Virus record (IMG/VR): IMGVR_UViG_3300024518_000876
Coordinates: 1 to 26,954 of that record
Direction: 5' to 3' (one strand)
Origin: a virus
DNA length: 26,954 nt
Made by a program: the position numbers and the translations under genes. Below the pieces are notes generated by a model, which was not told where the DNA came from, ran no database searches, and saw only the letters and a program-made list of their open reading frames with translations. Below are positions 702 to 8,204 of the stretch, piece by piece (within the stretch, counting starts at the first letter, position 1; every line of letters begins with the position of its first letter).

Positions 702-1210
702 GTTGTAAAGTCTAAAAAGTTATCTAAATCTAGGTTAAATGCCTTAACTATTTCGTCTGGTAGTTTCTTAAATTGTTGTTCAAAAGATAAACTAAAAAAT
801 TTTGTAGGTTTTTGTCCTTTTGAAAATATATGCCTACTCATTATAAAACCAAATTGTTTTGCAGTAATAAACTTACCTGTTTTTTTATCTCTTGGTTTAA
901 TCCCTTTAGCCTTTGCCCATTTACCAAATACACTTGGTGGTGGTGGTTTAGTTGTATAAGAGTATGGTGTATCATATTTTTGGTCAACACCACTAACACC
1001 TTTATCTACATACTCACCATAATCTAACATTTCAAAACTAAATGAAACTATATTACCATTGTTAGATATTTTAGCGGGTGTAAAACTTAAAGAATTATAT
1101 AAATCACTTGTTGCATTCTTTTTTTCTTTTGTAAGTCTACTTCTTGACTGTTGTACAACTGCTTTACCAAACTTATTTAATGCTCTTTCTGTGTTTATGG
1201 GTTTACGCAT
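698..1210 (-). CDS. Putative neck/tail-completion protein
   Basis: 170 aa, basic; motifs LYNSL, MLDYGEYVDKGV, PPPSVFGKW, GQKPTKFF resemble phage head-tail completion proteins; position in the structural block. Confidence 0.55.
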   Translation of the reverse strand: MRKPINTERALNKFGKAVVQQSRSRLTKEKKNATSDLYNSLSFTPAKISNNGNIVSFSFEMLDYGEYVDKGVSGVDQKYDTPYSYTTKPPPPSVFGKWAKAKGIKPRDKKTGKFITAKQFGFIMSRHIFSKGQKPTKFFSLSFEQQFKKLPDEIVKAFNLDLDNFLDFTT

Positions 1211-1659
1211 ACGTCAATCTCTGGACTTGGTACTCCAATATTAAAAGTTAAATCCCATCCCGCTAATCTGTTTTGTGTTTCAGTATCTAAAACTTTATCA
1301 AATGTTGGTTGTCCATCAATATAAATACTTTCTCCTACTGAATTTCTTCTCATTAGCATAAAGAACCTCCTAATAATATTATCTGTATTATTATAAACCT
1401 CTTGTAAATTGTCATTACCTAAAAACTTCTCTTGTGTAATGTTGTTATTTTCTGTAACAATATCTAATACAGAAACAACCACAGTATAAATATTTAGATT
1501 TTCTTCTACTGTACCATTATTAACCACAATATGCGCCATAATAGGTATGTTTTGCCTGTATGCGTCTAAATCATCAATATCACCCTCAGTGATAGTAATA
1601 ACCCTTGCATCTGTCCTTAAAGTATCTTTTATGCCGTTTATTAATTTAAAGTAACTCAT
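1195..1659 (-). CDS. Putative tail-terminator-like structural protein
   Basis: 154 aa, acidic, ends NRLAGWDLTFNIGVP; size and position fit a tail terminator. Confidence 0.5.
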   Translation of the reverse strand: MSYFKLINGIKDTLRTDARVITITEGDIDDLDAYRQNIPIMAHIVVNNGTVEENLNIYTVVVSVLDIVTENNNITQEKFLGNDNLQEVYNNTDNIIRRFFMLMRRNSVGESIYIDGQPTFDKVLDTETQNRLAGWDLTFNIGVPSPEIDVCVNP

Positions 1660-1661
1660 GT

Positions 1662-1904
1662 TTATTTTTTTATAGGTCGCATTAATTTAGCCTTATCACT
1701 CTCAAAGGCTAATCTAAATAATACTTTATTGATAGGGATGTATTGTACTTCTTCAATTCTGATACGCTCTGCGCTAGCGTATGTATCATAAGTCTGATAC
1801 CATCCCCATTTTTTACTGAATCTAATTGCTCTATCGTCTGCACTTGTTCCGCTTGACTCATAAAGTTCTGGGTATCGTTTACTAATTCGCTCCCTAAATT
1901 CAAA
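1662..1904 (-). CDS. Alternative -1-frame C-terminus (80 aa) of the 1709..2428 gene; fusion about 255 aa
   Basis: -1 frame is open from the T10 run to TAA at 1664-1662 (FEFRERISKRYPEL...FSKKWGWYQTYD...LAFESDKAKLMRPIKK) and ends 2 nt before the next ATG (1659). A TGA lies just upstream of the run in this frame, and its only ATG is 6 codons from the end. Confidence 0.7.
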   Translation of the reverse strand, partial: FEFRERISKRYPELYESSGTSADDRAIRFSKKWGWYQTYDTYASAERIRIEEVQYIPINKVLFRLAFESDKAKLMRPIKK

Positions 1905-2428
1905 AAAAAAAGCAATGCGCTCTCATAAATCTCATAAGGCGCATCTTTAAAAATATCAGTATTATTTTTGTGGTTGTAGGCTTGTATTTTATAAGTTCCT
2001 TTTTTGTTCTTAGAAAACAAACTTTTGTAAAACTTCTCTTTTATTACGGGACGATAAAGTACGTTTAAAATACTGTAAGCATTTGCGTCAGCATTCCCCA
2101 ATAATTTATCTAACGTACCATATTCGCCCGTACTCATGTTTTCAATATCGGGAATAAACCCATATTTAACACCGTTTAAATCAAATGTTAAATGTAATGT
2201 ACTTTCAGTATTTAAAGCCTCTGTAACAACTTTTAATGCGTGTTGGTATTCTTTAAATGGTAACTTATCTACTAAAGAAATAGGTATATTTAAACACTCA
2301 GCTAATAATTGTGTTTCTGTAACTTCTGACTCTCTATCTTCTGCTATTTTATAAAGCCGACTAATACTTAAAAACCTTTCGACTGTTATATCTTTTTTAG
2401 TTTCTGGTATTGTGTAAGTTAAATTCAT
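1709..2428 (-). CDS. Conserved phage protein, probable tail-assembly-chaperone-type frameshifting gene (0-frame product 239 aa)
   Basis: ORF track; motifs YGFIPDIENMSTGEY, LYRPV, ALLFFL; contains the CTT TTT TTT TTG slippery run. Confidence 0.65.
   Translation of the reverse strand: MNLTYTIPETKKDITVERFLSISRLYKIAEDRESEVTETQLLAECLNIPISLVDKLPFKEYQHALKVVTEALNTESTLHLTFDLNGVKYGFIPDIENMSTGEYGTLDKLLGNADANAYSILNVLYRPVIKEKFYKSLFSKNKKGTYKIQAYNHKNNTDIFKDAPYEIYESALLFFLNLGSELVNDTQNFMSQAEQVQTIEQLDSVKNGDGIRLMIHTLAQSVSELKKYNTSLSIKYYLD
1902..1911 (-). promoter_or_regulatory. Candidate -1 frameshift / slippage site (T10)
   Basis: A10 on the + strand gives a T TTT TTT heptamer in the correct phase, followed by an open -1 frame. 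Confidence 0.65.
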
Positions 2429-2448
2429 TATAGATTTAGTTTATTAAT

Positions 2449-2461
2449 TGTAAATATACAA
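2449..2461 (-). promoter_or_regulatory. Candidate promoter element TTGTATATTTACA, copy 1
   Basis: Identical 13-mer at 4286-4298; both are intergenic and just upstream of morphogenesis genes; resembles the Bacteroidota -7 box TAnnTTTG. Confidence 0.5.
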
Positions 2462-2466
2462 TAAAT

Positions 2467-3627
2467 TTACCTTATATCTACACCGCTTTTTTTGTTACTT
2501 AAAGTCATTACTGCAAAGTATCTCATTGCATCTATACAATGATTGAAATTATCAATAGGTTTATTTAGTTTGTTTCCCTCTCGGTCTGTGTCCCAAGTGT
2601 AATTTCTTAATTCCTTAATTAAATTTGTACTTTGTTTAGTAACCTTAAAAGAGTTTTCTTGTAATAACGATATACCATAATTAATACTGTCTTTTCCTTT
2701 CTTAGCACCCTTTATAATAACTCCAGAACGTCTAATTTCTTCTATACTTTTTGGCTCGGCACTATCTGCAAAAATAAACCTCCTTAAATCTTTCTTGCAA
2801 AGTTTAGCAATATCATTATTTAATAAACCTGTTCTATAAACTGACTCATGAAAAATTATTTCATTGTTATATTTGTAAGCATCAATTAATGTTGTAGGGT
2901 CATTTGTATAACCAAAATCCATACCGCTACCTAAATACTTGGCATCTGTTGGTAAACTGTCAATCTGTTGCCAATTCTCAAACACTACACCGTCTAAATT
3001 ACCAACGTGACCAAGTCCATAAACATTATACCAATTTTTCCAAAAGTTAGATTTAACTGCTTTCTCTTTTGCTTTGAGTATAAAATCTATTGCCGACTGC
3101 GGGCAAGCCTCATTATCTTCATAAGTTAGTATTATAAAGTCAGTATCTTTATCCCCCTCTAATTCGTTATGAAACCAAAACTTTGCAGTAGGGTTCCAAT
3201 CTAAAAACACTTCTTTTTTTGTCCTACTTGCTAATTCTGTATATGCATGAAATGTCATATTGTTACATTCATTCATGTATAGAATATCTCTCCTTGCCCC
3301 TCTTAACTTTGCATCATTATCAGCACTAAAAAATTCTATGTAACTACCATTAGGAAACTGAAACTTTGAGTCTGTTCTGTTAAAATAATTATCATACCAA
3401 CGATTAGTTAATAGCATTATCTTTTTAAAGTCTTTTAACGCACCCCTTTTTAAATGTGGTATTGACTCAGCAACTATACTAATTTCTAAGTTAGGTGTTT
3501 GTATTGCCCTATTAATAAGAACAGGTAGAATACCGAAAGTTTTACCCGCAGATGTTCCACCTTGTATTCCCTTAATCCTTTTTTTTAAGGATAGTATTTT
3601 ATTTATTGCAGTTGTTCTTTTAAACAT
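2467..3627 (-). CDS. terL: Terminase large subunit, PBSX family
   Basis: Walker A QGGTSAGKT, Walker B ILYMNE, coupling motif DWNP, nuclease motifs GMDFGYTNDPT, ADSAEPKSI, NHCIDAMRY. Confidence 0.95.
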   Translation of the reverse strand: MFKRTTAINKILSLKKRIKGIQGGTSAGKTFGILPVLINRAIQTPNLEISIVAESIPHLKRGALKDFKKIMLLTNRWYDNYFNRTDSKFQFPNGSYIEFFSADNDAKLRGARRDILYMNECNNMTFHAYTELASRTKKEVFLDWNPTAKFWFHNELEGDKDTDFIILTYEDNEACPQSAIDFILKAKEKAVKSNFWKNWYNVYGLGHVGNLDGVVFENWQQIDSLPTDAKYLGSGMDFGYTNDPTTLIDAYKYNNEIIFHESVYRTGLLNNDIAKLCKKDLRRFIFADSAEPKSIEEIRRSGVIIKGAKKGKDSINYGISLLQENSFKVTKQSTNLIKELRNYTWDTDREGNKLNKPIDNFNHCIDAMRYFAVMTLSNKKSGVDIR

Positions 3628-3891
3628 TTATAGTTCATCTGGAAACAATGGTTGTATCTCGTTAATTGTTATGTCTTTTGTTTCTGTCGGTTTACCTAAA
3701 GAATACTCTAAAAGTAATTTACTAGCTGGTATATCTTGCTCATCAATCGCTTTACCTAATAGCATAGTCAAAACCTCTGCAAGTTTCTCAACTGTAACAA
3801 CACTTTTAACAACGTCTTTATATTCGTTCTTTCGTTTGTCTGCTCCTTTTGTTTTGGTGCTATGTCCTCCGTTTTGTTTTCGTTTATCCAT
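3628..3891 (-). CDS. Probable terminase small subunit
   Basis: 87 aa abutting terL upstream; RKQNGG N-terminus and ASKLLLEYSLGKP motif. Confidence 0.65.
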   Translation of the reverse strand: MDKRKQNGGHSTKTKGADKRKNEYKDVVKSVVTVEKLAEVLTMLLGKAIDEQDIPASKLLLEYSLGKPTETKDITINEIQPLFPDEL

Positions 3892-3932
3892 GATTAATAG
3901 AAATTAACTATTAATTTATTTATTAAATTTTT

Positions 3933-4283
3933 TTACTCTCTTTCGTACACCTTATTAATTTTGTTAATCCAAGTTTTCCAAGTAGATACCCCACAAGTGT
4001 AACAAGGTTTAACGCTCATTGCTAAACAGTCTTTTAATAGCCTCACAATTAGCTTAGTTTCTTCTAACTCTATTTTGTTTTGATTCGGTCTATTAATAAA
4101 TGTTTCCCACTCTAAACGCTCTGATTCGTTTAAGTTTCTTTTGTAAGGGAATAACTTATTTAACTTCTCTTGTCGTTTGTTGCAACCCTCGCATTCTCCT
4201 ACAAGTTTTTTGATACCTGTTACTTCTGTTATCTTTGCAACTGTGTCTCCTAATCCTTTTTTTGTTTTTCTTTTTCTTGCCAT
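3933..4283 (-). CDS. Conserved phage protein with CxxC pairs
   Basis: ATG at 4283 (MARKRK) preferred to TTG 4298, which lies within the promoter-like 13-mer; KGLGDTVAKIT, CEGC, CYTC. Confidence 0.75.
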   Translation of the reverse strand: MARKRKTKKGLGDTVAKITEVTGIKKLVGECEGCNKRQEKLNKLFPYKRNLNESERLEWETFINRPNQNKIELEETKLIVRLLKDCLAMSVKPCYTCGVSTWKTWINKINKVYERE

Positions 4284-4285
4284 AG

Positions 4286-4298
4286 TGTAAATATACAA
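4286..4298 (-). promoter_or_regulatory. Candidate promoter element TTGTATATTTACA, copy 2
   Basis: Identical to 2449-2461; upstream of the terminase operon. Confidence 0.5.
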
Positions 4299-4325
4299 AA
4301 TTTAAAAATACGCCATTAAAACGGC

Positions 4326-4638
4326 TCATAACACGTAATATAATTAATACTCTATTTCGTGCTTATCAATAACATATTTGGTAAACTCGTCAGCGGTTAA
4401 GTAGTGCTTCAATACATCATCAAAGTGCTTCATATCCCTTCGGGCGTTTACATCAGAGTTTCTAATTCTAATTAGTGCACTAACTACAATTCTATCTTCT
4501 TCATCTCTTGGTATCTTAACTAACACCCTCATACTTCTTTCGGTTTCTCTAACACTATCTAAAACCGCTTCATGCATTTTCATATCCATAATATTCTATT
4601 TTTTAAATACGTACTAATCATATTACCATTCATTAGGT
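4326..4638 (+). repeat. attC-like element E1, enclosing a whole gene
   Basis: TCATAAC 4326-4332; arms GTAATATAATTAATAC (4335-4350) and GTACTAATCATATTAC (4611-4626), 14/16 complementary; right core degenerate A|TTAGGT. Confidence 0.6.
4344..4589 (-). CDS. Hypothetical protein, nested in E1
   Basis: 81-aa ORF with ATG start and A-rich leader. Confidence 0.7.
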   Translation of the reverse strand: MDMKMHEAVLDSVRETERSMRVLVKIPRDEEDRIVVSALIRIRNSDVNARRDMKHFDDVLKHYLTADEFTKYVIDKHEIEY

Positions 4639-4839
4639 AACATTTACCCATTCGTCATTTTTAAATACTTCTACTTGCCACCATCTAAGCTCTGTTACCT
4701 CACCATTCATAGAGCTATCAATTTCATCACACCAAAGTATATTTATTATCCTATATTTTAATGGATTTAATCCTACCACAATACCTTCGTAGTAGCAATC
4801 ACCATCTTCTATATCTCTTATTTTATCTCCTATTTTCAT
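4633..4839 (-). CDS. Hypothetical cassette protein
   Basis: 68 aa, MKIGDKIR start suggests an SH3/KOW-like barrel; stop codon coincides with the TTA of the core site. Confidence 0.75.
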   Translation of the reverse strand: MKIGDKIRDIEDGDCYYEGIVVGLNPLKYRIINILWCDEIDSSMNGEVTELRWWQVEVFKNDEWVNVT

Positions 4840-4858
4840 ATTACTTAATTTAAACGTT

Positions 4859-4910
4859 ACCTAACAAAGTATAAAGTCCATTAAAACGCACCTTATACAA
4901 TGCGTTGTAA
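4859..4910 (+). repeat. attC-like element E2
   Basis: ACCTAAC aaa GTATAAAG tc CATTAAAACG ca CCTTATAC aatgc GTTGTAA. Confidence 0.8.
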
Positions 4911-4916
4911 GTAATA

Positions 4917-5129
4917 CTATCCTTCGTCTTCAAATTGATATATTGGGTGTAAAATAGATTTAGGGTTCTTCCTTTTTAATCCATTTTCGGTTATCTTTTT
5001 AATAGCATTGTTTATCACTTTTGCACCACCTTTGCTTATCCAAGTATCTCTACTATTTAAGTGGCTTTCAAAAGCAAGTGCTACATAATAAAGTTCTTTG
5101 TCTGTAAAATCTATTTTTTCTCGTCCCAT
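4917..5129 (-). CDS. Hypothetical cassette protein
   Basis: 70-aa ORF filling the interval between E2 and E3. Confidence 0.75.
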   Translation of the reverse strand: MGREKIDFTDKELYYVALAFESHLNSRDTWISKGGAKVINNAIKKITENGLKRKNPKSILHPIYQFEDEG

Positions 5130-5161
5130 ATTTAAGTTTTGTTATTAATTATCCGTACTAC

Positions 5162-5212
5162 TTACAACTAATATTAAACAACATTAAAACGTTGTTTACT
5201 CTTTAGTTATGT
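5162..5212 (+). repeat. attC-like element E3
   Basis: TTACAAC..TAAACAAC ATTAAAAC GTTGTTTA..GTTATGT. Confidence 0.75.
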
Positions 5213-5458
5213 GCAATTTAATTTTAAAATATTTTTTGCACTGCTTTCTTTATACGCTCGCCACAAGCTACGTCTTTGCCAATAGTTAAAATGTATTACA
5301 GTTGGTGTCTGTATTTTAATTGACCTTCTGCCGTTTGCTATCCATAGGTGTATTCCCCAAGTATCATTCATATATCTACATTCACCTAATTCCCATTGCT
5401 CGCTATTTTCATCCATAGAAGCAATTATTTTGTTTACTAATTCTTTCTTGTTTTCCAT
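5207..5458 (-). CDS. Hypothetical cassette protein
   Basis: ATG at 5458; stop codon coincides with the TTA of the E3 core. Confidence 0.75.
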   Translation of the reverse strand: MENKKELVNKIIASMDENSEQWELGECRYMNDTWGIHLWIANGRRSIKIQTPTVIHFNYWQRRSLWRAYKESSAKNILKLNCT

Positions 5459-5493
5459 CAAAAATATTTTAAAATTAAACTGTTCACTTCGTC

Positions 5494-5554
5494 ACATAAC
5501 AATGTATATAATTAACTCCATTTCATTCCGCAAATCATATACGGAACGTTATAA
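5494..5554 (+). repeat. attC-like element E4
   Basis: ACATAAC aat GTATATAATT..AATCATATAC ggaac GTTATAA. Confidence 0.8.
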
Positions 5555-5558
5555 ATAA

Positions 5559-5765
5559 TTAAATTACTTCATTCGCTCCTTTTGGTAATTCAGCCCAATG
5601 CGTTATTGGGTTGTCCGTTACAAAATCACCGCCCCAATTTTGCCAAAAACCTCTATCACTTAAATTTGAGTAATTAGCTATAAATATTCCGTTATTTTTT
5701 AAGCAAACAAGGTAAATACCAATTGTTTTTTTTGGCAAACTTTCTTTTATATCAATCCATTCCAT
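5559..5765 (-). CDS. DUF551-like phage protein
   Basis: MEWIDIKESLP...YLV...ITHWAELP pattern; start moved to ATG 5765 because the longer ORF-track start lies in E5. Confidence 0.75.
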   Translation of the reverse strand: MEWIDIKESLPKKTIGIYLVCLKNNGIFIANYSNLSDRGFWQNWGGDFVTDNPITHWAELPKGANEVI

Positions 5766-5776
5766 AATTAAACTAT

Positions 5777-5837
5777 TAATAACATTGTTTATATTCCATT
5801 TTCGTACCTCAAACGGTACATACACTAACCGTTATGG
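5777..5837 (+). repeat. attC-like element E5
   Basis: TAATAAC att GTTTAT..CC.TTT..AAA.GG..ATACAC taacc GTTATGG. Confidence 0.65.
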
Positions 5838-5842
5838 TGCAA

Positions 5843-5938
5843 TTAAAAAAGACACATAACACCGTATAAAAACAATGCTATACTTATCCCTATTAAAACT
5901 GCTTTTGTTGCACTTGGATAATTTGGTAATTTTCTCAT
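5843..5938 (-). CDS. 31-aa hydrophobic microprotein starting inside E6
   Basis: Below the ORF-track cutoff: MRKLPNYPSATKAVLIGISIALFLYGVMCLF; A-rich leader; one TM-like stretch. Confidence 0.5.
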   Translation of the reverse strand: MRKLPNYPSATKAVLIGISIALFLYGVMCLF

Positions 5939-5985
5939 AGTTTTATCTTTTTAATTCGCACTTTTCTTATACAATCACGTTATAA
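5854..5985 (+). repeat. attC-like element E6 (long loop)
   Basis: ACATAAC acc GTATAAAAACAATGC (5864-5878)..GCACTTTTCTTATAC (5958-5972) aatcac GTTATAA; arms 12/15 complementary. Confidence 0.75.
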
Positions 5986-6186
5986 TTAATCAATCCATAA
6001 TACCGACCTTGTAGAAGTGTAACTATCTCCACTAATATACCCAATCGGTAATAAAACATACTCTTCTTCTAAGTAAGCATCTCCATCTTCAAATTTTATA
6101 TCTTTAATTGTAGTACTTGGTTTTATCCAACCTTTTTTAATGTACTCTTTTAATTTATTTTTTCTGTTCTCTATTATTTTATTCAT
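5986..6186 (-). CDS. Hypothetical cassette protein
   Basis: 66-aa ORF between E6 and E7. Confidence 0.75.
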   Translation of the reverse strand: MNKIIENRKNKLKEYIKKGWIKPSTTIKDIKFEDGDAYLEEEYVLLPIGYISGDSYTSTRSVLWID

Positions 6187-6200
6187 ATTTTTAAATTTAA

Positions 6201-6253
6201 TTATAACACTATGTATAGCACATTAAAACGATGCCATACACAATACGTTGTAA
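6201..6253 (+). repeat. attC-like element E7
   Basis: TTATAAC acta TGTATAGCA CATTAAAACG a TGCCATACA caatac GTTGTAA. Confidence 0.8.
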
Positions 6254-6262
6254 GTAATTGTA

Positions 6263-6643
6263 CTAAACCTTGTTAATTGTATCTTCACATGGTCTGCAAA
6301 TATTGTAAGTCACTTTAGCCTTGTTTTCATTGCATACTTCGCACAACTGTTCGCTTTGCCGTACAACACTGGGTATAGCAAATGATTCTTTGGCTTCATA
6401 TTTAGCTACTATTTCAGCCTTATCTATAAATTCATTACCTCCATCTTTTTCAAGCATTGTAAGTAAGCCAATTAACAGTTCACTTCGTTTGCTAATATTT
6501 TGTATAGTTAAATTTTTAACCTTACATTTTAGCTCCTTTATATCTTCCTTGTACTTGTCACAGTATTTACTTAGCCCTGCAACTGCTTGCCTACTCATCT
6601 TTAGGTCTTCCTGCAATTCTCTTATTTTTCCTTTTTGTGCCAT
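6263..6643 (-). CDS. Hypothetical coiled-coil protein with C-terminal CxxC..CxxC; reads through two attC-like left arms
   Basis: 126 aa; internal repeats LTIQNISKRSELL and FAIPSVVRQSEQL map onto the arms at 6474-6510 and 6345-6380. Confidence 0.75.
   Translation of the reverse strand: MAQKGKIRELQEDLKMSRQAVAGLSKYCDKYKEDIKELKCKVKNLTIQNISKRSELLIGLLTMLEKDGGNEFIDKAEIVAKYEAKESFAIPSVVRQSEQLCEVCNENKAKVTYNICRPCEDTINKV
6361..6380 (+). repeat. Orphan attC-like left arm E8 inside a CDS
   Basis: GTACAAC actgg GTATAGCA, similar to the left arm of E7; no clear right arm. Confidence 0.55.
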
Positions 6644-6694
6644 TTTTGTTTATTTAATCGGTTAAAAATCAAACCATACAATTTACCGTTATAA
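6490..6694 (+). repeat. attC-like element E9 enclosing the 5' part of 6263..6643
   Basis: Arms TTGTATAGTTAAATTTTTAACC (6500-6521) and GGTTAAAAATCAAACCATACAA (6660-6681), 19/22 complementary; left core degenerate TGCTAAT, right core GTTATAA. Confidence 0.7.
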
Positions 6695-6749
6695 ACAATT
6701 AGTTTGTCCATATCTTCTAAATTCATAATTTTAAAAGTTTATACCATTA

Positions 6750-6947
6750 TTACAAAAGTTGCACTTTAGTCCAAGCTGCAATGTAGATTTTATTACCATC
6801 TTTATCTATACCATTACAATACATTCCATCAAGTCTATGTATAGTAATTTCATCTCCTTTTTTTATTGACACTGACTCAGGTGGGGTCTTTACATTTTCA
6901 TCAATTACTACTACTTTGGTTCCATATTTAACATTATGTGCTTCCAT
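6750..6947 (-). CDS. Hypothetical protein, possible SH3-like barrel
   Basis: 65-aa beta-rich ORF directly downstream of the helicase. Confidence 0.7.
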   Translation of the reverse strand: MEAHNVKYGTKVVVIDENVKTPPESVSIKKGDEITIHRLDGMYCNGIDKDGNKIYIAAWTKVQLL

Positions 6948-6953
6948 ATTTTT

Positions 6954-8204
6954 TTAATTTAATTTATTTAGGCAATCTTGAACATCTGTACAATATATAA
7001 AATTATAATTTTGCACTTGTTCAAACATTTTATTTACCCATACTTTTTCTTGAGTATCTGCTGTCATAATGATAAATACTTTACCAATCTGACCGTTCTC
7101 TCTTAATCTTCCTAATCTTTGTATTAAATCTTTTTGTTTAGAGTAATAAGACATTAATATACAAGCATCTAAATCCTTTAAATTAGCACCTTGTTTTAGC
7201 TTTTTAAACGACCCAATGACTCTTATATAATTATTATCAAATGCAGTTCTTATTTGGCTGTTTTTAGCCTCAGAATTACGAGATGATACTGTATTCTTTG
7301 TCACTTGTAATAAAGAATCTATAGAGTTACCAAATATTATAACTTTACCAGTTAATTTTCTGATTATTTGTTTAGTAACTTCTATTTTAGAAGGTAAATC
7401 ATACAGAATTTTACTTCTTCTACCTGCTGCACTAGTAATTTTAATGCTTTTTTGATTCTCTAATTTTTCAATTCTTTTTAGATATGTTTTGTGGTCCTCC
7501 CCTTCTTTTTTATTATAATTAATTTCAGCATTTATATTATCTTTAAATACTTTATCCCAATATGTATATGCTTTAGCTTCAGTTTGCATAAAAGGCTTTC
7601 TAGCACTTCCTGCTTTAATACTTTTAACTGAGTCATCTAACTTATGATTAATTATATAGATGTCTAAATTTCTAGCTGTACCTTCCTCTAAACCCTGATT
7701 TAAATGATACTGATAACATATAGGCGCTACTTTAGATAAATAGTAACCTTTTGTTTTATTTTCTTCTTCATAATAAGTTTCAACATCTATTAAGGCTGAT
7801 AAACCTATAATAGCAGAAAAATCATTATTTTTATAGAATTGAGAATAGGCAGGTGTTAAGCTATCATGTATTTCATCAGCTATAACTAATCCTATTCTTC
7901 TTCCTTTCCACTTATAAACAGTCTGATAACATTCAAACTGTAGATTGTAATCTACTAATACGTTTCTATTAAATATTTCATTATATTTATTTATCTGCGC
8001 TAGTAAATCACGTTGTCTGTCAACTACTTCTGCCAAAAAGTAATGTACTACATTTTTATCTTTAGGCATTGTATATAGGGCATGTAGCCCAACAAAGGTT
8101 TTACCTAACCCGGTTATAATTTCACATGTACCATGCTTATCACTGTTTAACCAGGCAGATATAGCCTTTTGTTGAACTTCATCCTTTTTCTTAATACTAA
8201 TCAA
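6954..8204 (-). CDS. Superfamily 2 (DExH, ResIII/UvsW-like) helicase
   Basis: TGLGKT, IADEIH, GLSA, QGANL, QRLGRLR; TTG start. Confidence 0.9.
   Translation of the reverse strand: MISIKKKDEVQQKAISAWLNSDKHGTCEIITGLGKTFVGLHALYTMPKDKNVVHYFLAEVVDRQRDLLAQINKYNEIFNRNVLVDYNLQFECYQTVYKWKGRRIGLVIADEIHDSLTPAYSQFYKNNDFSAIIGLSALIDVETYYEEENKTKGYYLSKVAPICYQYHLNQGLEEGTARNLDIYIINHKLDDSVKSIKAGSARKPFMQTEAKAYTYWDKVFKDNINAEINYNKKEGEDHKTYLKRIEKLENQKSIKITSAAGRRSKILYDLPSKIEVTKQIIRKLTGKVIIFGNSIDSLLQVTKNTVSSRNSEAKNSQIRTAFDNNYIRVIGSFKKLKQGANLKDLDACILMSYYSKQKDLIQRLGRLRENGQIGKVFIIMTADTQEKVWVNKMFEQVQNYNFIYCTDVQDCLNKLN

Follow-up and report, generated by a model that had tools for sequence, protein, structure and literature searches.

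Front and back halves of small proteins are apparently exchanged at translated inverted-repeat junctions in marine phages of Flavobacteria

Results

Gene 6263–6643 and its parts

The DNA analyzed here (the window) is the first 27 kb (26,954 nucleotides) of the 103,499 bp IMG/VR virus record IMGVR_UViG_3300024518_000876, and all genes of the window are carried on the minus strand. Among cultured phages, the nearest relative is the crAss-like phi14:2 of Cellulophaga, which matches only in the RNR and helicase genes, at ~72% DNA identity. The stretch 3628–6947, a run of small genes with a terminase-like gene on one side and the helicase on the other, has no DNA match in phi14:2. The source phage is an uncultured marine crAss-like phage and gene 6263–6643 (minus strand), the subject of this study, is one of its small early genes. 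The gene encodes 126 amino acids, among them the two peptides LTIQNISKRSELL and FAIPSVVRQSEQL singled out in the original prediction, and consists, in order, of a head of 41 codons and two tail cassettes, A (helical) and B (a zinc ribbon). Two copies of a junction (CTATAC, four nucleotides, then GTT or ATT with an arm) join these parts and are translated as LTIQNIS.. and AIPSVV.., respectively. The 126-aa protein had no significant hit in Pfam or PHROGs and no tblastn match among GenBank phages, and a single-sequence AlphaFold2 model of it reached a mean pLDDT of only 38.6 and was unusable. No Rfam family was found within 3500–7100 at E ≤ 1.

Read along the minus strand, the preceding unit ends at 6688–6696 with GTTTATAAC, in which GTT and AAC stand 3 nt apart; the relative L104 has AAGTATAAC in that place, and this unit end looks like an empty cassette. 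It is followed in the 5′UTR by an upstream, L′′-like arm, TGTATGGTTTGATTTTTAAC (6661–6680), and then by the head module (6521–6643), which comprises the start codon and 41 codons and encodes an N-terminal helical peptide (MAQKGKIRELQEDLK...). The head passes into junction 1, a conserved 19-mer designated H1 (GTTAAAAATTTAACTATAC, 6502–6520) that is read as VKNLTI. The upstream arm and H1 are the right and left arms of the original prediction, according to which the gene starts in the loop between arms complementary at 19 of 22 positions. Indeed, the inverted repeat 6500–6521/6660–6681 is 22 nt long and 19/22 complementary, and the start codon (6641–6643) sits in its loop, with 138 nt between the arms. 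Allowing three mismatches or fewer, the left-arm 19-mer has two matches in the window where shuffles predict 0.09, and a 14-nt core, CRAAGYGAACWGTT, occurs three times against an expectation of 0.00. The DNA under the two peptides forms a 38-nt repeat family (D1) together with a third member at 5478–5515. In its VKN variant the 19-mer (6502–6520) also contains A_AAU_UUA, a canonical −1 slippery heptamer, in frame and a few bases before the strong stem; the −1 frame after it closes within 5–6 codons, and the VKK variant has no canonical slippery heptamer.

Tail cassette A (6375–6496; helical, SELLIGLL...KYEA) lacks its own stop codon. Its 5′ arm is ATTAGCAA (6489–6496), its 3′ arm is a remnant, TTTGCTAT (6375–6382), and within it lies a conserved inner core, CGAAGTGAACTGTT (6474–6487), read as RSELL with the rare Leu codon CTG. 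Junction 2 (6368–6379) is made of GCTATACC and the spacer CAGT and is read as AIPS; only the L′–R′ half of a connector remains there. Tail cassette B (6247–6367), a CxxC...CxxC zinc ribbon, begins with the 5′ arm GTTGTA, contains a second copy of the inner core (CAAAGCGAACAGTT, 6345–6358, read as QSEQL), and ends with a stop codon at 6263–6265 and the 3′ arm TACAAC at 6247–6252. The units are therefore arranged in tandem (head, A, B) and not as the two nested units first proposed. It had also been claimed that the second arm is without a clear partner. This is correct for the upstream side, where junction 2 has no partner because cassette A is fused directly onto it, but not for the downstream side, where GTTGTA (6362–6367) pairs with TACAAC (6247–6252) and CTATACC (6372–6378) pairs with TGTATGG (6234–6240).

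Several smaller features accompany these parts. Tail A apparently has two layers of arms, an outer one (GTTAGCAA/TTGCTAAC; 6489–6496 with 6375–6382) and an inner one (GTTAATTGGC/GCCAATT..; 6467–6476 with about 6390–6398), and a mini-cassette in locus L049 has the outer arm layer enclosing only ACGAAGTGAAC and GTTTTAATG; together these hint that cassettes may insert into hairpin loops at AAC|GTT. A 34-codon ORF on the minus strand (6622–6726, MNLEDMDKLIVYNGK...) extends across both the empty cassette and the upstream arm into the start of gene 6263–6643, which it overlaps in a different frame. On the plus strand, an antisense ORF of 114 codons (6321–6665) lies over most of the gene; the reverse frame of tail A is open in locus L003 too, and the antisense ORF is probably a shadow frame.

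A chain of cassettes and connectors

Gene 6263–6643 is part of a longer array. The minus strand of 4632–6696 holds a succession of cassettes, every one of them set between GTT..AAC arms of its own: A and B are followed by C (5979–6207), D (5831–5860), E (5548–5783), F (5206–5500, which carries gene 5207–5461), G (4904–5168) and H (4632–4865). Cassettes C, F, G and H hold a whole gene with its own start codon, cassettes A, B and the DUF551-like E are in-frame tails, and two cassettes (6688–6696 and D) are nearly empty. A previously unlisted 31-codon ORF (5844–5939, minus strand) encodes the hydrophobic peptide MRKLPNYPSATKAVLIGISIALFLYGVMCLF and ends in the hairpin of mini-cassette D (5831–5860).

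Since cassettes begin with GTT and end with AAC, the connectors between them run from AAC to GTT. The short connector after cassette B (6208–6246, with cassette C next) is a hairpin composed of G, TGTGTATGG, the loop CGTTTTAATG, CTATACA and a spacer, and the short inter-cassette hairpins follow the same plan: G, TGTATGG, a loop with CGTTTTAATG, CTATAC and a spacer. Short connectors measure ~40–65 nt and the head-bearing connector of gene 6263–6643 measures ~190 nt (6688 to 6497). Whole-gene cassettes, with start codons of their own, are preceded by the same junction as well.

A second cassette array, which includes a head–tail gene (103094–103333), lies at the other end of the genome. Three segments there are 100% identical to parts of the window (103373–103499 to 4903–5029, 103050–103093 to 5166–5209, and 103029–103052 to 4309–4332). 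One connector and the end of cassette G are present there as exact copies, whose breaks lie at GTT and after AAC. Because the record stops inside the 127-nt exact repeat, the contig end is probably a point at which the assembler stopped at a repeat.

The arms of each cassette covary

In these cassettes the 6–19 nt that follow the junction (GTT and the arm) are the reverse complement of an arm and AAC located at or just after the stop codon, and the sequence of the arm varies from cassette to cassette. Amongst 45 unique arm pairs, positions 4–8 are Watson–Crick paired in 38–42 pairs, as against means of 14–23 and a maximum of 31 with permuted partners. Pairing at positions 2 and 3 holds in 43 and 45 of the 45 pairs; 42 pairs start with GTT, 40 end with AAC and 5 with AAT. 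Exact complementary runs of at least 8 nt are found in 61% of own pairs and in 5% of non-own pairs. Moreover, homologous copies of tail A carry three compensated types of arm (AGCAA/TTGCT, AGCCA/TGGCT and GTACA/TGTAC). In many cassettes the stop codon TAA lies within the arm (..TAAC), so that the arm also sets the last residues of the protein.

Where the arms do not match, 16 mismatches are G:T and 14 are A:C. The minimum-free-energy fold of the sense RNA includes the closing stem in 24 of 26 cassettes, and the sense fold is more stable than the antisense fold in 22 of 26, but the latter is also true of 36 of 48 ordinary coding segments. A crude genome-wide count of GTT-anchored 8-mer inverted repeats placed 4 of 28 in 2% of the genome, a modest enrichment; counted as 9-mers with one mismatch allowed, such repeats gave pure noise.

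Junction DNA is conserved beyond the needs of the protein

The DNA of the junction is identical or nearly so behind unrelated heads. We selected nine junctions by protein pattern alone and compared their codons with general usage. The junction Ile is ATA in nine of nine (usage 0.44), the Val that follows it is GTT in eight of eight (0.38) and the Thr is ACT in six of six (0.43), while every copy uses CTG (0.04) for the Leu of SELL and AGC (0.09) for the Ser of VS. The sequence GAACTGTTAATTGG is retained, rare codons included, even in tails with only ~50% protein identity. A third copy of the junction (5478–5515, minus strand) opens cassette F upstream of the start of gene 5207–5461 and would read LIIYIVM*RSEQF; since its in-frame TGA precedes the gene start, this copy is conserved without being translated.

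Upstream of the head, GTATGGTTWGATTTTTAAC is found 14–23 nt ahead of the ATG in 24 of 27 related genes, this being the complementary arm whose presence upstream of the start codon had been proposed as a check, and it pairs with the 19-mer. Two positions of the arm/H1 stem are conserved as non-Watson–Crick pairs, both G–T on the sense strand. A reading frame that begins in the loop of this hairpin must leave it through the L′ box, the spacer and the arm, giving VK(N/K)LTIPxV(S/V), so the repeated peptide is dictated by the DNA site. The fixed rare codons, the copy with an in-frame stop and the partner arm in the 5′UTR all favor the view, already expressed in the original prediction, that the peptide motif is a by-product of constraint on the DNA.

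Heads and tails reassort

Protein searches covering 5.8 + 1.8 billion proteins returned ~50 relatives, each of which matches one part of the 126-aa protein only. The head (residues 1–44) recurs with tail A in P0002 and with at least six other C-terminal parts (P0003, P0028, P0031, P0033, P0036 and P0037). Tail A (SELLIGLL...KYEANL and a stop) forms the end of more than 35 proteins with unrelated N-terminal parts, and tail B stands behind three other heads (P0004, P0010 and P0043). In all relatives the switch from head to tail falls at L-x-I-x-x-V, and junctions of the IxxVxxxSE(L/Q)L type turned out to be common in phage proteins. Loci L105 and L037 likewise have a common head and different tails.

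In the closest relative, L104, DNA identity is ~93% across the upstream arm, the head, H1 and tail A. There tail A ends in a normal stop codon followed by TTGCTAAC, whereas the window continues into junction 2 and tail B; the A–B fusion is therefore specific to this lineage. In gene 6263–6643, tail A, minus its stop codon and connector, has been fused to the junction of tail B.

Across 27 genes the heads are 38–43 codons long and unrelated in sequence, with a median identity of 8%. Their last ~14 residues nevertheless have a common amphipathic pattern (column hydropathy variance 0.70, against 0.39 ± 0.09 in shuffles), and this shared amphipathic-helix pattern means that some protein-level constraint coexists with that on the DNA. 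Taken together, the comparisons of sequences indicate that the front and back halves of small proteins are exchanged between phages at these junctions, and they bear out the suggestion that protein N- and C-termini can be swapped in frame here.

Breakpoints fall at the ends of the modules

In ten loci, copies of tail A are followed straight after AAC by unrelated sequence, and the connector that comes next is different in every locus. Loci L018 and L019 share 2.86 kb at 99.86% identity; their divergence begins after TTGCTAACGGT. We also compared contigs from four seawater metagenomes with the reference across 3600–7000. Contigs from the same seawater samples diverge exactly at 6502, the end of the 19-mer (three contigs from one run), and at 6369, two bases ahead of the GTT of tail B (two runs, X2 and X6). 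Further divergences fall at the start codon, at 5828, 5773, 5496 and 4900, and within the upstream arm. In one contig 4629 is followed directly by 6246, so that cassettes C–H are gone, exactly at AAC|G. The positions of these breaks show an exchange of modules between phages whose breakpoints lie at AAC|G and either at GTT or immediately ahead of it. With this, and with the assortment of heads and tails and the fixed synonymous positions, the inference that we set out to follow is largely supported.

Joints between 4327/4329 and 5164/5166 were considered as population variants and rejected: their source is the paralogous array at the genome's far end. No circular or excised form of a cassette was seen.

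Distribution in phages of marine Flavobacteria

The exact H1 19-mer was found at 65 loci in a scan of IMG/VR. As VK(N/K)LTIP it links unrelated heads to unrelated tails in some 30 distinct small genes. CxxC..CxxC ribbons are frequent among these tails, which also comprise helical modules resembling A and one DUF551-like module. The same architecture is present in ~30 IMG/VR contigs and in cultured Cellulophaga, Polaribacter and Olleya phages, examples being gp029 of Cellulophaga phi13:2 and gp52 of Polaribacter P12002S, together with a DNA match in Olleya Harreka_1. As these clonal isolates have the same layout, an assembly artefact is excluded.

In a collection of bacterial genomes (596 Gb) the arm 19-mer gave 13 matches, none of them in Flavobacteriia. 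Nine are without a downstream H1-like site and look like chance. The other four lie on small or phage-sized contigs binned in MAGs, three of them with an exact H1, and we read these as phage contigs. The H1 19-mer also occurs in a family of ~790–800 aa proteins (L025, L027, L031, L038 and ~13 more IMG/VR loci), in which the same exact sequence gives VKNLTIP but is followed by EIAKQF.. or QLKKKF.. with no GTT arm; here VKNLTIP is probably a coincidence of AT-rich codon choice.

A search of the whole 103-kb genome for recombinases of families PF00589 and PF00239 gave no match. Related contigs contain RecT, YqaJ and NinG genes. L014, a contig in which tail B follows a different head, also has genes for a tyrosine integrase, an SmpB homologue and a sigma-70-like protein (1040–3381) beside its small-gene array. 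In phi13:2, gp038 (L087, 6761–7054) is a tyrosine site-specific recombinase whose gene follows a DNA methylase cassette and closes the small-gene array on its downstream side; it is a candidate for the enzyme.

Discussion

A model for the exchange

The region alternates between two kinds of segment, cassettes (the tails) and connectors. A cassette starts with GTT and a cassette-specific arm and closes with the reverse-complementary arm and AAC. A connector starts directly behind an AAC with the conserved arm GTATGGTTWGATTTTTAAC, continues through the 5′UTR, the ATG and ~40 head codons, and finishes with the complementary 19-mer, whose last bases are CTATAC, followed by a 4-nt spacer and the GTT of the cassette behind it. 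So described, a connector has the layout of an attC site (AAC, L′′, variable loop, L′, GTT) with a reading frame that starts within the loop. The recombining enzyme would be the host's or one that is still unrecognized, and the outcome would be combinatorial assembly of small early proteins. We infer that the folded inverted repeats drive the exchange, in a structure-directed and integron-like recombination, and put the probability of this at roughly 0.55. Points against the integron-like reading are that the genome has no PF00589 or PF00239 recombinase, that the arms depart from the attC consensus, that AAC|G and |GTT both serve as breakpoints and tails are unlinked to the connector behind them, that head-bearing connectors are larger than attC sites usually are, that circular or excised forms did not turn up, and that attC1 of Polaribacter phage P12002L, the site with the CGTTTTAATG loop, has no verified IntI1 product.

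More tentatively, unrelated marine Flavobacteria phages may have in common an integrase-less, structure-guided exon shuffling of single-triplet precision, in which the site is translated as the linker VK(N/K)LTIPxV. The ~40-aa heads would lie in attC-like hairpin loops and the tails would be bracketed by self-complementary GTT..AAC arms. If this is true, small early proteins would come as combinatorial libraries, which might serve host takeover or counter-defence.

The main rival to recombination of folded DNA combines RNA stems with short-homology recombination. On this account the stems are mRNA structures that affect how early transcripts are stabilized, processed or translated, and shuffling would follow as a by-product, the modules being exchanged by RecT/Erf-type annealing at the flanks while selection keeps intact units. 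The conserved flanks of 19–45 nt could indeed serve ordinary short-homology recombination, RecT, YqaJ and NinG are at hand in related contigs, and the promoter-early stem-loops (PeSLs) of T4-type phages, as described, offer a precedent (PMC2839356, PMC4122927). As to the stems themselves, the sense RNA folds with the closing stem in 24 of 26 cassettes and the two non-Watson–Crick positions of the arm/H1 stem are G–T on the sense strand, but the arm mismatches are without sense-strand bias (16 G:T, 14 A:C), sense-over-antisense stability is found in ordinary coding DNA as well, no Rfam family was matched, and a 20-bp stem reaching into an ORF brings no obvious benefit to the mRNA. Breakpoints, moreover, fall at the GTT/AAC triplets even where the adjoining spacers differ. 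We consider this account unlikely, though one to be taken seriously.

Miniature foldback (MITE-like) elements with terminal inverted repeats, inserted in genes and translated like the palindromic elements of Rickettsia, would account for units that are small (100–200 nt), bracketed by inverted repeats, spread over unrelated phages and absent from bacterial chromosomes (9 of the 13 matches there being chance-like and 4 read as phage contigs). They would not account for arms that are cassette-specific instead of family-wide or for interiors that are unrelated functional domains; no target-site duplications are visible, nor is there a transposase of PF00589 or PF00239, the two recombinase families searched, and we regard such elements as improbable. 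Still less probable is a motif of the protein alone, that is, LTIPxVxxxSELL as the linker of one family whose DNA similarity reflects recent common descent. Such a linker would always be in frame in fused genes, as observed, and the common amphipathic pattern at the ends of the heads (0.70 versus 0.39 ± 0.09) agrees with it, but the partner arm lies in the 5′UTR, rare codons are fixed, the covariation extends past the stop codon, the same junction stands ahead of whole-gene cassettes with their own starts, and untranslated copies, including the one with an in-frame stop, contradict it. An invertible switch of the shufflon or Gin type, in which the inverted arms flank a flipping segment that supplies an alternative C-terminus, can hardly be credited: C-terminal coding segments do lie between inverted repeats and tail A has an open reverse frame, but most of 27 cassettes have reverse-frame stops, which makes inversion unlikely, the 103-kb genome has no PF00589 or PF00239 invertase, and no inverted tail A occurs in IMG/VR, a search of low power given only two exact forward copies.

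If structure-directed recombination is the right reading, it has several consequences. A translated, head-bearing site and the combinatorial assembly of small proteins appear to be undescribed in the literature we searched; integron-like sites in lytic phages have so far amounted to a few predicted attC sites located between genes. Because the site described here sits in genes and is read as protein, recombination at it would build new proteins from N- and C-terminal halves and not only move genes, and it would do so in phage families as far apart as crAss-like phages and siphoviruses. The vast pool of small orphan early proteins in phages would thereby have a concrete mechanism of origin, and a widespread conserved peptide would be explained as the footprint of DNA recombination. 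It also carries a warning for annotation, as VKNLTIP-type motifs and their flanking 'domains' would be recombination scars and not the signature of a protein family. Cultured systems are available in Cellulophaga phi13:2, Polaribacter P12002S/L and Olleya Harreka_1.

Comparison with known systems

The likeness to integrons is close in several respects. Each connector consists of AAC, a spacer of 4–7 nt, TGTATGG.., a variable loop, ..CTATAC, a 4-nt spacer and GTT, and so has the paired outer (R′′/R′) and inner (L′′/L′) boxes and the conserved AAC/GTT triplets of attC sites; the arrays of small co-oriented genes without an adjacent integrase resemble CALINs; and each cassette has a start that matches its end, which would be expected of ends brought together in a single folded site. 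In Polaribacter phage P12002L, a CALIN of two predicted attC sites was described by Qi et al. (2023), and IntI1 recombined attC2; attC1, the one with the CGTTTTAATG loop, had no verified product (PMC9892861). P12002L attC1 has this same loop between AAC and GTT as the connectors of the window, attC2 corresponds to a spacer of P12002S, and this sister phage has the same junction inside gp52.

There are also differences. Here a reading frame starts in the hairpin loop and reads through the site to produce a linker peptide. The arms measure 8–19 nt and are cassette-specific, and most of them (GTTAGCA, GTTGTAC, GTTATGT, GTTACCC) break the RYYYAAC/GTTRRRY consensus. Head-bearing connectors of ~190 nt exceed the usual size of attC sites, which is about 57–141 nt. 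A classical integron has its crossover only at G|TT and each ORF moves with its own attC, whereas here both AAC|G and |GTT are breakpoints; since tails are unlinked to the next connector, AAC|G is also a point of crossover. Finally, a complete integron has an adjacent intI, for which this genome has no PF00589 or PF00239 match, and the elements are found in phage contigs and not in bacterial chromosomes.

Shufflons (Rci/sfx, PilV) and the Gin/Cin/Min tail-fibre systems work by inversion, carried out by a dedicated recombinase within one genome. They too have a translated recombination site inside a gene and place alternative C-termini on a constant N-terminal part, but in the phage arrays there is no invertase, reverse frames are mostly closed, both halves vary, and the exchange is seen between genomes. 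Rickettsia palindromic elements are palindromic DNA that is tolerated in ORFs and translated. They constitute one conserved family of selfish inserts, whereas the elements of the arrays studied here are conserved only in their ~20-nt ends and enclose diverse protein modules.

The closest analogue of this shuffling at structured motifs is the PeSLs of T4-type phages, which are described as regulatory (promoter–terminator) cassettes that shuffle genes (PMC2839356, PMC4122927). In both cases small early ORFs of hyperplastic regions are flanked by short, structured motifs that are conserved and that show where modules are shuffled between phages. The array of the window has a conserved 5′UTR and a stem-GTTTTAAT-stem hairpin. 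The motif of the present phages differs from PeSLs as described in lying within coding sequence and swapping halves of proteins, and in that each cassette has its own covarying arms.
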